Shown in pieces: positions 3,647-19,187 of a stretch of DNA of 28,073 nucleotides. The DNA is from Candidatus Eiseniibacteriota bacterium (lineage in GTDB: Bacteria; Eisenbacteria; RBG-16-71-46): contig JBGPFC010000045.1 of NCBI GenBank assembly GCA_041483195.1, positions 1 to 28,073 on the forward strand, read 5' to 3'. The notes beneath the pieces were generated by a model. The model had not been told where the DNA came from and searched no databases. It saw only the letters and a list, made by a program, of their open reading frames with translations. Numbering within the stretch: the first letter of the stretch is position 1; every line of letters starts with the position of its first letter. A program made the position numbers and the translations under genes.

Positions 3647-5011
3647 GTGATCGAGACGACGATGAATAGACGCGGCCACACCCCGCGCCGCGGGGGCCGT
3701 CGATTCGCGGTGGTGGCGACCCTGATGATCGGGCTGCTCGCGCTCGCGCCGCGCGGTGGGCGCGCGGCGCGCACCGCGGCCGAGCCGAACTGGCCCGACG
3801 GCACCCGGCTGATGGCCTTCGAAAATCTGGAGGGCGTGCTGCTGATCGAGGCGACGCTGCGCGGGCTGGCCGGGCGCGACACCACGGGCCCCGTCGTGCT
3901 CGACACCGGCGCCGGATTCCTCGCCGTCGACGGTGCGCTCGCGGTCACGCTCGGTCTCTCCGACAGCGTGAGCGCGGATGAGGTGGGCATCGCGGCGCGT
4001 GTGCTCCCGCGGCTCACGCTCGGCGCGGCGCAGATGGACCAGGTCGCTCCGGTGCTCACCGTGAACGGTGACATCGTGCGGCGCGTGACCGACCGGCCGG
4101 TGCTGGGTCTGGTGGGCCAGCGACTCTTCGCCGGCGATGCGCTCCAGATCGACTACGCGGCGGGGCGTCTCGCGGTGGTGCCGGTCGCGCCGGCCGGTGC
4201 CGGCGCGGGGCGCGACGAGGGCGCGGATGCGATCGCGGCCTCGCACGCCTCGCTCGAGGAGGTTCTCGAAGCGGACGCCGCCCCCGTGCCATTCCGGCTC
4301 GCGGGCGACGGCAAGATCATCGTCGAGGCACGGGTTTCCGATCCGCGGCCCCCGCGCTACAGCCGCTGGCTCACCCTGATCGTGGACACCGGTGCGACCA
4401 AGTGCGTGCTGTTCGACTGGGCGCTCGCGGAGAATGCGGGACGCGCCCGGGAATGGCGCCAGCTGCGCGGGCTCTCGGCGCCGACGCTGTTCGGCGCGGC
4501 GAGCGCCTCCATCGCGCGCGTTCCCGAGATCGAGCTGCGTGCCGGCCGCGAACGCGTGCGAATGAGCGGACTCGACGTCGCCGTGATCCATAGCGACCTG
4601 GGCGGCGTGCTGTCGCGCGCGACCGGCGAGCCGGTGCACGGGTTGCTGGGCTACTCCTTCCTCCGCCATTACCGTGTGACCATCGACTATCCGCACCGAG
4701 TCATGTGGCTCGAGCGCGCCCTTCGGCCGGCGGACGAGCGTCCCAACGAGTACTCCCACGTCGGCATTCAGATCGAGCGCGATGACCGCGCCGCGCGCGT
4801 GGTGGGCGTCGCGGAGGGGTCGCCGGCCGCGCGCGCCGAGGTCGAGGCCGGGGATGAACTGATCGCGATCGACGGCGCTCCGGCTGCATCGCTCGACATC
4901 GTGACGCTCTCGCGCCGGCTCGAAGGGCCTCCGGGGAGCGACGTGACCCTGATCCTGAGGCGAGGTACGACTGAGCGCACCATCCGGCTCGTCCGACGCC
5001 GCCTCCTCTAG
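3647..5011 (+). CDS. Exported aspartyl protease with two retropepsin-like domains and a C-terminal PDZ domain
   Basis: N-terminal hydrophobic signal; VLDTGA and IVDTGA catalytic motifs, each followed by G-L-(V/L)-G...IDY; PDZ-like VGIQI...GSPAARAEVEAGDELIAIDG. Confidence 0.85.
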   Translation: MIETTMNRRGHTPRRGGRRFAVVATLMIGLLALAPRGGRAARTAAEPNWPDGTRLMAFENLEGVLLIEATLRGLAGRDTTGPVVLDTGAGFLAVDGALAVTLGLSDSVSADEVGIAARVLPRLTLGAAQMDQVAPVLTVNGDIVRRVTDRPVLGLVGQRLFAGDALQIDYAAGRLAVVPVAPAGAGAGRDEGADAIAASHASLEEVLEADAAPVPFRLAGDGKIIVEARVSDPRPPRYSRWLTLIVDTGATKCVLFDWALAENAGRAREWRQLRGLSAPTLFGAASASIARVPEIELRAGRERVRMSGLDVAVIHSDLGGVLSRATGEPVHGLLGYSFLRHYRVTIDYPHRVMWLERALRPADERPNEYSHVGIQIERDDRAARVVGVAEGSPAARAEVEAGDELIAIDGAPAASLDIVTLSRRLEGPPGSDVTLILRRGTTERTIRLVRRRLL

Positions 5012-5018
5012 GCGCGAT

Positions 5019-5933
5019 GTGGCGCGCGGCCGGTGGCTGGTGCTCGGCGCCACCGTCCTGTGGGGCACGACCGCCACCCTCGCGCGCTTCGTGTTCCGCG
5101 ACCGCCACGTCCCGGCCCTGGAGGTGGTGGAGCTGCGGCTCGCGATCTCGGTCGCGCTGCTCGGGCCATGGCTCCTCGTTCGCGACCGATCGCTGCTGCG
5201 CGTGCGGCGCGAGGATTGGGTCTATTTCCTCGTGCTCGGGTTGTTCGGAGTCGCCGCGGTTCAGGGCTGCTACTACTACTCCATCTCGAAGCTCGGCGTT
5301 GGCCTCTCGATTCTCATCCAGTACCTCGCCCCATCGCTCATCGTCATGTGGGAGGCGTTCCGCGGGGCACGCGTTTCACGCGTGACCGTGATCGGGGTGG
5401 TGAGCGCGCTGGCGGGAACCGCGCTGCTGGTGGGCAACCTCGATCCGGGATCGCTCCACGCGCGGCCGCTGCACGCGAGTCCGATCGATTGGGCGATCGG
5501 CTTCGGCTCCGCGCTCTCGTTCGCGTTCTACGTGGTGTTCTCGAAGCGCGGCCTCAGGCGCTACGCGCCCGAGACCGTCCTGTTCTACACCTTCGTGATC
5601 GCCGCGGGATTCTGGTGGGTGGCGGCGCCACCGTGGCGGATCGCGGCCGCCGGCTACGGGCCGGACCTGTGGCTGATGTTCCTGGTCCTCGGCGTGTTCT
5701 CGACGCTCGCACCCTTCGCGCTCTTCTATGCCGGCCTGCGTCGCATGCCCGCGAGCCAGGCGGGCATCTTCGCGACCCTGGAGCCGGTCGTGGCTGTGCT
5801 CTCGGCGGCGCTGTTCCTCGGAGAGGGGTTGCGCACGCTCCAGTGGATGGGGGCGCTGCTCGTGCTGATCGCATCGGCGATCGCCTCGCGACAGGCGCCC
5901 GAGGTGGTCGCGGCGCAGGTCGAGCGCGGCTGA
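5019..5933 (+). CDS. EamA/DMT family transporter
   Basis: About 10 hydrophobic segments, LWGT, QYLAP, ATLEPVVAVL...LFLGEGL...WMGALLVL. Confidence 0.9.
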   Translation: MARGRWLVLGATVLWGTTATLARFVFRDRHVPALEVVELRLAISVALLGPWLLVRDRSLLRVRREDWVYFLVLGLFGVAAVQGCYYYSISKLGVGLSILIQYLAPSLIVMWEAFRGARVSRVTVIGVVSALAGTALLVGNLDPGSLHARPLHASPIDWAIGFGSALSFAFYVVFSKRGLRRYAPETVLFYTFVIAAGFWWVAAPPWRIAAAGYGPDLWLMFLVLGVFSTLAPFALFYAGLRRMPASQAGIFATLEPVVAVLSAALFLGEGLRTLQWMGALLVLIASAIASRQAPEVVAAQVERG

Positions 5934-5944
5934 TCGGCGAGTCT

Positions 5945-6403
5945 TCAGCTCGCCGCGGCCAGATCCTCGGGCTGTCCGTGCAGGGCGTGCAGCCGATCGC
6001 GCACTCGTTCGACGCGCGCCGCGCTCACCGTTTCGACCGCGTAGCGCTCGTCCCACGCGAGATTGCCCCGCAGCCACACGCGCAGTTCGGGGAATCGCGC
6101 GAGGAGCATCACACCGGTCCTGCCCTTCAACTCGCGCACCGCGCTCGCCACGCTTTGAGATGGCTTGAGTGCCAGCAACACGTGGGCATGATCGGCTCCC
6201 GCCGCGACATCGATGAGAGCGTAATCACGTTCTTCGCAGGCTTGCGTGATGAGGGTCTGGAACGCGCGCACATGGCGATCCTTGAGCACCGGGCGGCGTC
6301 CGCGCGTGGTCCAGGTGACGAGGTAGTGAAGCTGACTGCGATAGATCGGCTCCCAACGACCCGCCAACGCCTCACTCACCTCGGGAGCCAGTTCGTGGTT
6401 CAC
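5945..6403 (-). CDS. IS200/IS605 TnpA-like Y1 HUH protein, predicted catalytically inactive (start re-called to GTG 6403)
   Basis: HYLVTWTTRGRRPVL, DHAHVLL (HUH), SVASAVRELKGRT, FPEL, W..RYAVETVS all match the Y1 transposase pattern; the YIxxQ helix is replaced by RDRLHAL; AGGAGG lies 7 nt before GTG. Confidence 0.85.
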   Translation of the reverse strand: MNHELAPEVSEALAGRWEPIYRSQLHYLVTWTTRGRRPVLKDRHVRAFQTLITQACEERDYALIDVAAGADHAHVLLALKPSQSVASAVRELKGRTGVMLLARFPELRVWLRGNLAWDERYAVETVSAARVERVRDRLHALHGQPEDLAAAS

Positions 6404-6427
6404 GGTCCTTCCTCCTGCGGGGATGAT

Positions 6428-6451
6428 TGAACGCATGTGCAGCTGTGTGCT
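6428..6451. promoter_or_regulatory. Two overlapping degenerate LexA-type boxes upstream of the tnpA-like gene
   Basis: TGAAC-GCAT-GTGCA (6428-6441, 1 mismatch) and TGCAG-CTGT-GTGCT (6438-6451, 2 mismatches) versus TGCAC-N4-GTGCA; same 10-bp offset as the pair at the lexA promoter. Confidence 0.6.
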
Positions 6452-6454
6452 CTG

Positions 6455-6477
6455 AAAAACGGGAGCGCAAGCTCCCG
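6455..6477 (-). terminator. Intrinsic terminator downstream of lexA
   Basis: Minus strand CGGGAGC-TTGC-GCTCCCG followed by TTTTT. Confidence 0.7.
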
Positions 6478-6514
6478 GGGGGGACCCGAATACGGCCGTT
6501 CGGATGCGCGGAAC

Positions 6515-7114
6515 CTATCGGAGGGTGCGAATCACTCCTTTCACGATGCCGAGGATGCGAAACTCTGCCGCCTCGTCGATCACGATCGGGGCGTACTTGG
6601 GGTTCGCCGCCACCAACTCAACGTGGCCGCGCCTCGGCTGGTAGTACTTGACCGTGGCTTCCTCCCCGACCAGGCCCACGACGATTTCGCCGGCGGTCGC
6701 GCGCTCCTGCTGGCGCACGATGACGTAGTCGCCCTGGAGAATTCCCGCGCCCTCCATGCTGTCGCCCCGCACCCGCAGCGCGAACATGCCGTGGGTGTCC
6801 CCGAAGACGTCGTTGGGATCGAGGTGGCCTTCGAAAGATTCTTCGGCGAGCACCGGCTGGCCGGCGGCCACGCGACCCAGAATGGGAATGCCCGAGCCCT
6901 GCGCGGTCCGCGCGATGCCCTCGATGCCGCGGGAGATCTTGCCGCTGCGCTTCAGGTGACCGGCCTTCTCCAGCAGGTTGAGGTAATAGCGGACGCCGTT
7001 GGTGGAGGCGATGCCGTAGGCCTTGCCGATCTCACGAATGGTCGGCGGGTAGCCCCGGTCGTTCTTGAAGCGCTGGATGAAGAGCAGAATTTCGCGCGCG
7101 CGATCGTTCAGCAT
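6515..7114 (-). CDS. lexA: SOS repressor LexA
   Basis: GYPPTIREI HTH, IPILGRVAAG (Ala-Gly cleavage site), LRVRGDSM (Ser), EATVK (Lys). Confidence 0.97.
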   Translation of the reverse strand: MLNDRAREILLFIQRFKNDRGYPPTIREIGKAYGIASTNGVRYYLNLLEKAGHLKRSGKISRGIEGIARTAQGSGIPILGRVAAGQPVLAEESFEGHLDPNDVFGDTHGMFALRVRGDSMEGAGILQGDYVIVRQQERATAGEIVVGLVGEEATVKYYQPRRGHVELVAANPKYAPIVIDEAAEFRILGIVKGVIRTLR

Positions 7115-7162
7115 GGATCACGTCCCCCTCGATGAATGGCCGATCCAGGGACCCGGCACGCG

Positions 7163-7195
7163 TGCACCATAGTGCACACACGTGCAGCGGGTCAA
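7163..7195 (-). promoter_or_regulatory. lexA promoter overlapped by two perfect TGCAC-N4-GTGCA palindromes (SOS boxes)
   Basis: Boxes at 7163-7176 and 7173-7186; minus-strand TTGACC (7195-7190), 18 nt, TATGGT (7171-7166). Confidence 0.8.
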
Positions 7196-17799: not shown

Positions 17800-18975
17800 T
17801 CATTTCGAGTGACCCTTGGAAATTCTGCGAACTGGGAGGAAGGCCAGAATTCTCTCGCGCTTCGCCCGGACCACGTGTCCAACTCGTTCGATTAGCCCCA
17901 TCTTCATCAGAACATTCAGATCTCTGGAGACTGTCTTCTGCTGCTTAGTAGCGTAGGCAGCCGCCAAGCGAGGGCTAAGCGTTGCGATCTTCGCGACTGG
18001 GACACCGTCATGATGAAGGGAGAGGTCGAGCGCGAGGTGCCTCCGCCGTTCGTCCGCGAGCGACTTCTTGTCGCGGAATCCTTCGTGCACATAGTTTCTC
18101 CACGCCACGTCCCACTGTTGCTCCCTGATGCGCGCGAGTTGATCTTTCAGACCGTCGACGAATCCGGCGACCGCGTATTGAAGAAACGGGAGGACATCTC
18201 CCCCCGAGAGACTGGCTTGATGCAGCTGGCGGTAATACTCGGAACGTGTGCGGTTATAGTGGTCACTCAAGAGGTGCGCTGCAGGGAGTGGAACCCCCGC
18301 GTGAATGAGCATGTAGAACTCGATCAGGCGGGCCGTGCGGCCATTCCCGTCACCAAACGGATGAATCCAGGCCAAATAAATGTGCGCCAGCACGGATCGA
18401 ACAATGGCGAACGCAATCGCATTGGTTGGCTCATTTCGCAGATCTGGATGATTCAGCCACCCGCACATCCGTTCCAGTAGGTATTCACAGTCTTCCGGCA
18501 GGGGCGGGTCGTACCTGGCGACTCCCACCTTGACGGTGCGCACCTTGCCCGGGACGACATGCTCTTCCGCGGGCACCTTGGTCAGCACGATTTCATTCAG
18601 ATGGGAGACGAGCTTAGGGGTAAGCTCGTCGGTCGTGTGTTCCAGGTTCGCCGCAATTTCGTTGCACGCTCGAACGATGTTGTCGATTTCTTGGCCCAGA
18701 TATTGTTTCGACGCGGGGAGGTCCAATTTGCCTTCTATGCGCTTTCTGACTTCTTCCTCAGTGAGGGTGTTGCCCTCTATGGCCGTGGTCGCAAGGGCGC
18801 CCTTCGCGAGGTAGATTGAATGGAGTGAGGCGGCGGTGTCGGGTCTGAGCGGGACTCCAGCGATGTGCTCGCACTTCGACTGCGCTTCGCCGAGTTGGAG
18901 CCATGTCGTGGAGTTGATCCGGCGCAAATCAAATTCGAACGAAATCCAGCGGTGCGTTCTCTCGTACGGGCGCAT
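17800..18975 (-). CDS. Fic-domain protein (class II, N-terminal inhibitory motif) with putative C-terminal HTH
   Basis: HPFGDGNGRTAR catalytic motif; TTAIEGN fits (S/T)xxxE(G/N); ATG 18975 preceded by AAGGA (alternative start 19017); lower GC than neighbours. Confidence 0.9.
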   Translation of the reverse strand: MRPYERTHRWISFEFDLRRINSTTWLQLGEAQSKCEHIAGVPLRPDTAASLHSIYLAKGALATTAIEGNTLTEEEVRKRIEGKLDLPASKQYLGQEIDNIVRACNEIAANLEHTTDELTPKLVSHLNEIVLTKVPAEEHVVPGKVRTVKVGVARYDPPLPEDCEYLLERMCGWLNHPDLRNEPTNAIAFAIVRSVLAHIYLAWIHPFGDGNGRTARLIEFYMLIHAGVPLPAAHLLSDHYNRTRSEYYRQLHQASLSGGDVLPFLQYAVAGFVDGLKDQLARIREQQWDVAWRNYVHEGFRDKKSLADERRRHLALDLSLHHDGVPVAKIATLSPRLAAAYATKQQKTVSRDLNVLMKMGLIERVGHVVRAKRERILAFLPVRRISKGHSK

Positions 18976-19187
18976 CGTTGTCCGTCCTTGTGTCCAAGCT
19001 AGTTTGTTTTCTGGCATCCATTTAACTAATTACTTAGCCATACATATGTCCAACCTGACGTCGCACCATACGTCCACGTGATCGTCAGGCGCAAGCAGAG
19101 ATTCTGGCGCGGAATTCTGCGCGTGTCTGGGATCCGCAGGGTTAGAGGAGCTGAGGAAATCCAAGCCAAGGCTGGACGGAAACACTC

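Follow-up and report, generated by a model that had tools for sequence, protein, structure and literature searches.

The stretch analysed here (the window) comprises 28,073 nt of contig JBGPFC010000045.1 in a 96.8% complete genome of Candidatus Eiseniibacteriota bacterium (GCA_041483195.1), and holds directly behind lexA an intact gene for a 152-residue Y1/HUH protein that lacks the catalytic tyrosine, to which we gave the working name tnpA*. Judged from the sequence, tnpA* is very probably a domesticated descendant of an IS200-type insertion sequence (IS) under the control of LexA. This is strongly supported by its single copy, its linkage to lexA, its vertical inheritance, the purifying selection acting on it and the conserved box that it shares with lexA, and the proposal of domestication into the LexA regulon made in a sequence-only reading of this stretch was thereby upheld; the same box also stands ahead of two dinB operons and of a gene resembling SplB.

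The tnpA* gene lies downstream of lexA with a spacing of 111 nt (Table 1). The intact open reading frame (ORF), its strong ribosome-binding site, the terminator after lexA and the 11-nt gap to the stop codon of the convergent EamA gene were all found as first read from the sequence. The hairpin upstream of tnpA* would act like a terminator, and it could descend from an IS left end; its stem is retained with differing sequences in three relatives (L013, L014 and L031). On the 3' side of tnpA*, no common downstream sequence was visible by eye among the loci listed.

Table 1. Features of the tnpA* locus in window coordinates.
Feature	Position	Strand	Basis
tnpA*, 152 aa, GTG start	5945..6403	-	intact ORF; Y1_Tnp and NF033573 matches
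HUH motif H72-A73-H74	6182..6190	-	motif alignment
Arg137, in place of the catalytic Tyr	5993..5995	-	alignment to ISDra2 TnpA (2xm3)
His142, directly after the position of the Gln; possible third ligand for a metal	5978..5980	-	
LAAAS tail at the C-terminus, similar to an ssrA tag; probable signal for degradation	5948..5962	-	
Ribosome-binding site AGGAGG of tnpA*	6411..6416	-	sequence
LexA-type box TGCAC-N4-GTTCA preceding tnpA*	6428..6441	.	conserved in relatives
Putative weak tnpA* promoter	6430..6458	-	TTTTCA (6458-6453), 17 nt, TGCGTT (6435-6430)
Intrinsic-terminator-like hairpin and T tract, between lexA and tnpA*	6454..6477	-	hairpin 6460-6477
lexA, 199 aa	6515..7114	-	TIGR00498 172 bits (cut-off 111); Pfam LexA_DNA_bind, Peptidase_S24
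lexA promoter TTGACC-18-TATGGT with a box inside the hexamer spacer and an overlapping second box	7163..7195	-	
EamA transporter gene, convergent to tnpA*	5019..5933	+	context; Pfam

Family, fold and active site of the tnpA* protein

Profile searches assigned the tnpA* protein to the Y1 family, with 77 bits against Pfam Y1_Tnp and 74.8 bits against the NCBIfam IS200/IS605 transposase model NF033573, which passes the cut-off of 55, compared to 30.5 bits against the RAYT model NF047646, below its cut-off of 80. The AlphaFold model of the protein has a predicted local distance difference test score (pLDDT) of 85. A wide structural similarity search using VIA-align revealed that the nearest folds are TnpA 2ec2, with a Z-score of 16.3 and a root-mean-square deviation (RMSD) of 2.2 Å over 110 aligned residues, and TnpA 2vhg (Z 16.2, RMSD 2.2 Å over 110), followed by RAYT 4er8 (Z 10.1, RMSD 3.2 over 118). 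The matches in the ESM Atlas were Y1_Tnp clusters only. Compared to TnpA, the protein has an extra N-terminal WEP segment.

Alignment to ISDra2 TnpA (2xm3) paired the segment RVRDRLHALH of tnpA* with QIQKYIESQH, which places Arg137 at the catalytic Tyr and Leu141 at the Gln. Together with the Y1_Tnp match, this confirmed that the HUH motif is kept in the window and that both Tyr and Gln are replaced, as had been read from the letters, with the qualification that His142, adjacent to the lost Gln, is near-invariant in the main family (120/120 top homologues and 78/80 loci). Arg occupies the column of the catalytic Tyr in 120/120 top homologues and in 77 of the 80 loci, and Tyr is found there in none of either set. 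Unlike the tnpA* orthologues, 87 of 139 more distant matches carry the motif Y-[ILV]-x-x-[QN]. The candidates for a substitute catalytic Tyr, namely Y21, Y121 and a late Tyr in 6/80 tails, were rejected as variable or structural: Y21 is replaced in 11/80 loci and in 9/9 f3 proteins (families are defined below), and Y121 is the counterpart of a β5 Tyr present in true TnpAs as well.

The order to which the genome belongs has three families in Ca. Eisenbacteria, referred to as f1 (that of this genome), f2 and f3, which differ in the state of the active site. The residues H72, H74, H142, H44 and R130 are each present in 32/32 f1 proteins and in 120/120 top homologues, and the HUH motif as a whole is intact in 32/32 f1 proteins, compared to 0/9 in f3 and 0/3 in f2. 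The histidines disappear jointly, as His142 is missing in the same two families that have lost HUH. Common to all three families are H26 (31/32 in f1), R90, K/R93, G94, P105, R108 and W117; as in TnpA structures, these shared residues (R90, G94, W117 and others) presumably lie on the DNA-binding face. The f2 proteins, of 118 aa in L043 and 139 aa in L042, stop just past W117 and lack HUH, β5 and helix D, with the box present ahead of their genes (L041-L043); a protein search with an f2 query gave 4 close relatives only.

In f1 the protein closes with the tail [L/F/W]-A-x-A-[S/G] in 117/120 homologues and 72/80 loci, and this tail is absent from the f2 and f3 proteins. It resembles the tag ANEQLALAA of the host transfer-messenger RNA, and by this sequence likeness it is likely a degradation signal; the pattern ends just 4 of 2825 filtered ORFs of the genome, with about 2 expected.

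The predicted homodimer obtained a model score of 0.81 versus 0.06 for the best of 3 controls; in calibration the mark was reached by 20/30 solved pairs and 1/23 solved single chains, and the run used a custom alignment and a Mn ligand, both outside that calibration. The contacts of the models agree at ≥84% with pLDDT ≥82, and the predicted interface involves residues 18-27, 80-89 and 119-130, of the β1/β5 type. The support for the homodimer may carry over from likeness to solved TnpA dimers. Neither the AlphaFold monomer nor the homodimer prediction delivered a metal geometry.

Distribution, inheritance and the LexA-type box

A profile search over 206 genomes of the phylum found tnpA* in 80/88, 10/10 and 3/3 relatives of the three families, which is 93/101 in the order, normally as a single copy per genome. 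A phylum-wide presence was not supported: among the genomes searched, the gene is confined to one order. Outside the order, weak profile matches occur in 6/104 genomes, none of them with lexA in the fetched DNA (two of the contigs have just 2.5 kb), and one visibly keeps YIxxQ. Five of the 8 f1 genomes that gave no match were checked; four also have no lexA, and in the fifth lexA stands at a contig end. Linkage to lexA was counted in two overlapping sets, the counts of which are not additive: in a set of 49 distinct loci lexA is upstream of tnpA* in 48, and the one exception lies at a contig end; in the wider set it is upstream in 80/80 loci. The orthologues thus turned out to be single-copy and lexA-linked, with one box conserved, as the earlier interpretation called for, and the multicopy, Tyr-bearing homologues without lexA linkage that would have spoken against it were not what was found: the gene is fixed in place and no orthologue has the Tyr.

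This genome has no second Y1_Tnp match and, in agreement with the earlier statement that tnpB is lacking, no TnpB-type match (PF07282). Among the 47 genomes of the order that match Y1_Tnp at all, 42 do so just once. A set of 41 pattern matches in viral contigs contained no relative of tnpA*. In databases tnpA* carries a transposase label.

Several loci depart from the common arrangement. In one genome (G035; L014, L044 and L045) the entire lexA-tnpA*-EamA region occurs three times, twice with frameshifts, and in another (G019; L046) tnpA* is frameshifted and its box is gone, so that conservation is not perfect. A glyoxalase gene is inserted between lexA and tnpA* in the f2 locus L043. The nearest matches from outside include proteins of 270-295 aa (P0132-P0134, P0145 and P0151) in which two Y1 domains stand in tandem, some of them with one degenerate Tyr or HUH motif.

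The gene has been inherited vertically. In a tree with 45 of the 65 eligible nearest TnpAs, 44 orthologues formed one clade (100/99), within which each host family had a clade of its own (95/93, 95/92 and 100/100), and the distances between tnpA* proteins follow those between the LexA proteins, with a Spearman coefficient of 0.83 overall and 0.47 within f1. The ratio of nonsynonymous to synonymous substitution rates (dN/dS) is below 1, as the sequence-only reading had suggested be checked, in 496/496 f1 pairs (median 0.31; lexA 0.33) and in 36/36 f3 pairs (median 0.42; lexA 0.49; closest f3 pairs 0.05-0.27), values from the Nei-Gojobori method (NG86) that are crude at a third-position G+C content (GC3) of 0.84-0.89 and come from non-independent pairs.

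The box ahead of tnpA* is a single palindrome with the consensus TGCAC-N4-GT(G/T)CA. It is found with ≤1 mismatch in 47/47 aligned loci, a set that excludes L040 (contig end) and L046 (frameshifted and box-less), and in 79/80 loci of the wider set, compared to 79 of 9400 shuffled 100-nt windows in a chance control. At lexA, the box at 7173-7186 lies between the -35 and -10 hexamers and is present with ≤1 mismatch in 46/46 loci with the site. Each gene had been credited with a pair of boxes overlapping by 10 bp. Ahead of tnpA* the single box is real, and its supposed partner was dismissed, having 2 mismatches in the window and appearing at ≤1 mismatch in 0/47 loci. At lexA the pair does exist in the window, where both boxes (7163-7176 and 7173-7186) are perfect, but the second is not conserved, being perfect in just 2/46 loci, and the 10-bp overlap is therefore a local accident. 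The lexA leader (window 7115-7165) also contains a hairpin-like element, GTGCC(A/G)GGTCC...GGACC, conserved in most f1 genomes.

The exact box pattern outnumbers its reversed control 8:1 per strand in this genome, with a weaker contrast in some relatives. Counts by spacer length gave no excess of N4 in the genome, and the case for the box was therefore built on position and conservation. A putative promoter of tnpA* has the consensus TTTTCA / TAYGTT at a fixed 17-nt spacing over the 47 loci, with the -35 hexamer in the T tract of the terminator and the -10 hexamer in the box; a scan with consensus promoters did not report TTTTCA/TGCGTT before tnpA* and found that of lexA. The LexA of Fibrobacter succinogenes is said to bind a similar TGC-N-C-N4-GTGCA box, the sequence of which the literature search did not yield.

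When this genome was scanned with a matrix derived from 90 sites of relatives, 7 sites reached ≥19.8 bits, and 5 of them stand ahead of lexA, of tnpA*, of two operons of the DUF6504-like/dinB kind and of a radical S-adenosylmethionine (SAM) gene that is Rv2578c/SplB-like. One of the operons (C4, ~8155; L055) reads DUF6504-like/dinB/DUF72, and the other (C25, ~26157; L053) reads DUF6504-like/261-aa ORF/second dinB. The 261-aa ORF has a weak TIGR04471 match and resembles a Gp37Gp68-type protein. Two more perfect boxes are on C2, one 6 nt ahead of tRNA-Lys(TTT) (~66181; L054:3682-3777) and the other upstream of an mraZ-like/mraW promoter (~102783; L057:3684), with a possible link of the SOS response to the division cluster; the mraZ-like gene is named from its sequence. 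The radical SAM gene has a perfect box as well (C28, ~9288; L056:3689), and SplB-type genes have been described as SOS-regulated (PMC8565304). A box-like site with a matrix score of 13.6 stands just ahead of rpsO (S15) and pnp (C8, ~44483; L059:2984), and recA on C48 has the neighbourhood cinA-2'5'-ligase-recA-recX.

The EamA gene is near tnpA* in 65/80 loci, and an aspartyl-protease/PDZ gene (window 3647-5011) is syntenic with the tnpA* locus in f1. Elsewhere in the window, Pfam searches identified a parA-parB pair (1331-2936) and a Fic-domain gene (17800-19017).

The lexA-dinB cassette and possible functions of tnpA*

In f2 and f3 the gene order is lexA-tnpA*-(DUF6504)-dinB-DUF72, with dinB in 12/12 loci, DUF6504 in 7 and DUF72 in 11. 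For other orders, 32 genomes were tested and 20 of them supplied one lexA locus apiece, with tnpA* in 0/20; 6 loci read lexA-DUF6504-dinB-DUF72, 3 lexA-DUF6504-dinB, 3 lexA-dinB and 2 lexA-DUF6504, and the last 6 show no such neighbours. The simplest history would be that an ancestor of the whole order acquired one IS200 element at the junction of lexA and DUF6504, after which the Tyr and the IS ends would have been lost and a LexA box gained behind the terminator; in f1, DUF6504-dinB-DUF72 would later have been relocated with a box of its own, to C4 in this genome. All stages of this proposed history, namely the cassette before the insertion, with the insertion and after the split, can still be seen in extant genomes, which makes this an unusually complete case.

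Our favoured reading, to which we assign a probability of roughly 0.45, is that the tnpA* protein binds single-stranded DNA (ssDNA) of branched or hairpin form at stalled forks without cutting it, working alongside DinB-type translesion synthesis. Cleavage of LexA would relieve repression of the putative weak promoter, which the box overlaps; the protein would dimerise as TnpA does (predicted by the model), and its retained basic surface (R90, G94, P105, R108 and W117, together with R34 and K/R93) would hold fork or hairpin DNA. Once bound, it would assist translesion synthesis of the DinB type or act as its gate, and in f1 the ssrA-like tail would clear it soon after repair. Catalysis seems dispensable, since HUH is broken in 12/12 f2 and f3 proteins and the basic surface is kept. 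The reading is favoured because of this dispensability, the origin in and co-regulation with a translesion cassette, and the fork binding of the parent enzyme: IS608 TnpA is reported to bind forks and Holliday junctions without need of its target sequence, to localise to stalled forks and to interact with DnaN (PMC5027513). A more elaborate version, which we put forward tentatively, is a LexA-controlled, protease-timed non-cutting clamp on branched ssDNA that licenses DinB translesion synthesis, in which one family would have evolved a three-His metal site instead of the Tyr chemistry and the three host families would represent successive stages of the change.

Several observations weigh against a fork-binding partner of DinB under LexA control. 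Both the function and the regulation are predicted from sequence and models, and the dN/dS estimates are crude, as noted above. The f1 proteins hold H72, H74, H142 and H44 almost invariant, for which a passive binder would have no need, and the dimer cannot be universal across the families, because f2 lacks β5 and helix D, part of the predicted interface. In f1, dinB is within 5 kb of tnpA* in 0/80 loci; the gene stayed beside lexA when dinB was gone, so that physical linkage to dinB is not obligatory, and since other orders have the cassette without tnpA*, the gene is not essential to the polymerase system. As to the regulon, 2 of the 7 best sites precede tRNA-Lys and the mraZ-like gene, which are non-repair genes, and recA has no box at ≤1 mismatch in 7 kb (C48, L060).

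A short-lived regulator or checkpoint of the SOS response that would control transcription or cell-cycle progress and not act at the fork, be it by binding a nucleic-acid hairpin (such as the terminator ahead of tnpA* or the hairpin of the lexA leader), as a LexA co-factor or through a pause of division, is the alternative that we consider unlikely yet take seriously. Division inhibitors such as SulA and YneA adjoin lexA, and tnpA* has kept its place next to lexA in all loci, also where dinB has moved; the ssrA-like tail suggests tight turnover, hairpins are conserved ahead of tnpA* and in the lexA leader, and the mraZ-like/mraW genes have a perfect box upstream. However, the terminator keeps its structure and varies in sequence in several genera, as an ordinary terminator would, the synteny in f1 is broad, as the frequency of EamA shows, so that adjacency to lexA may be inertia, and the tail is missing in f2 and f3. 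The conserved histidines would instead be accounted for if f1 had been re-tooled, with H72, H74 and H142 forming a three-His metal site and R137 and R130 steadying the phosphate, into a tyrosine-free, hydrolytic ssDNA/hairpin nuclease or an end-processing enzyme. The invariance of the five residues in f1 and the joint loss of the histidines in f3 and f2 speak for such an enzyme, but the f3 and f2 orthologues are maintained without them (all f3 pairs have dN/dS below 1), which makes the shared function independent of the histidines, and the models gave no metal geometry; we regard this possibility as improbable.

The sequence-only reading had offered two functions, of which an ssDNA/hairpin-binding repair factor fits the data better. 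The other, a dominant-negative or competitive suppressor of IS200/IS605 transposition under DNA damage, gains from the TnpA-like homodimer of the model and from the hybrid active sites of TnpA, in which the Tyr is supplied in trans (PMC3597680), and the near absence of other Y1 genes from genomes of the order could be the effect of suppression. It fares poorly, because 42/47 genomes have no second Y1 gene that could serve as a resident target, f2 has lost part of the dimer interface, and a heterodimer of wild-type and Y127F IS608 TnpA remained active in strand transfer in vitro, although full excision needs two sites (PMC3597680). Moreover, any Y1_Tnp match occurs in only 2/11 genomes of related families without tnpA*, the other 9/11 being equally Y1-free, and the nearest true TnpAs are distant, with about 25-34% identity in the aligned cases. 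We therefore consider suppression a quite unlikely function. An IS200 that decays, or is still mobile, by chance beside lexA is hardly credible: the protein passes the NCBIfam IS200/IS605 cut-off and bears the transposase label, and frameshifted copies exist in 2 genomes (L044, L045 and L046), but single copy, fixed position, purifying selection, a family-congruent tree and the lack of Tyr in any orthologue argue against it, as do the extra copies in G035, which duplicate lexA and EamA too, and the lack of a relative in viral contigs.

Comparison with known systems

The closest known proteins are the IS200/IS605 TnpAs (ISDra2 2xm3, IS608 2vhg and Sulfolobus 2ec2), with which tnpA* shares the fold, the size, the HUH motif in f1, the W-x-x-R and K-G motifs and, by prediction, the β1/β5 homodimer. 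It differs in lacking the Tyr, the Gln, a tnpB partner and visible IS ends, in having a single fixed copy, a LexA-type box of its own, the WEP segment and the C-terminal tail, and in the loss of HUH in two families. The class-1 catalytic core consists of HUH and Y---Q, with Y-x-x-x-Q on helix D, according to the main survey of the Y1 family, the tree of which was drawn from the 722 of 924 sequences having both motifs (PMC6006769). The protein is TnpA-like in its fold and probably in its DNA binding, but since tnpA* has neither Tyr nor Gln and is not mobile, standing behind lexA in all loci of the wider set and normally in one copy, it does not belong to TnpA.

TnpA_REP/RAYT proteins are likewise Y1 HUH proteins retained by the host, as described in PMC6006769. 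They keep HUH and Tyr (Y---NP) and flank arrays of repetitive extragenic palindromic (REP) sequences, and the E. coli RAYT is monomeric, whereas tnpA* is without Tyr and below the RAYT cut-off. A role of the hairpin upstream of tnpA* as a REP or repeated TnpA target was not supported: GGGAG..CTCCC-T4 is found once in 4.17 Mb and its stem varies, in a search confined to this type of REP.

The lexA-imuB-C-polY cassette of Geobacter sulfurreducens (GeoPolY-like) resembles the one described here in joining lexA, a small β-type accessory gene and an active Y-family polymerase, and it is damage-induced; it differs in that the accessible parts of its descriptions mention no transposase-derived member (PMC6511836, PMC3765255). 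Geobacter LexA is reported, in a title of the reference list of PMC6511836, not to bind recA, which is box-less here too. We infer that DUF6504, identified by a domain match only, may be a standalone ImuB-C. TldR is a dead TnpB kept for binding. ImuB, a dead Y-family polymerase, is similar to tnpA* in having lost catalysis and been kept for binding under SOS control (PMC6511836). Both differ from tnpA* in fold and origin, neither being a transposase of the Y1 type. An active ISCR transposase has been reported to be under SOS control, which is a different case from tnpA* (PMC13393415). A literature search, with subscription papers and supplements outside its reach, found no paper describing tnpA* or DUF6504.

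Altogether, tnpA* is real and represents a variant of transposase domestication with a predicted mechanism; as a single copy behind lexA, with no DNA-cutting Tyr and a likely LexA site, it is likely a host damage-response protein. The range of the finding is one order of uncultured bacteria, for whose phylum a minimal regulon and its likely SOS box are now defined. It also shows that labels such as ‘IS200 transposase’ can conceal host genes. The described host-retained Y1 transposases, the RAYTs, keep the Tyr; a branch that has lost it and is fixed in a regulon for DNA damage represents domestication of another kind. With 152 residues and a well-modelled structure, the tnpA* protein offers a small subject for testing whether the fork-seeking of TnpA has served hosts.

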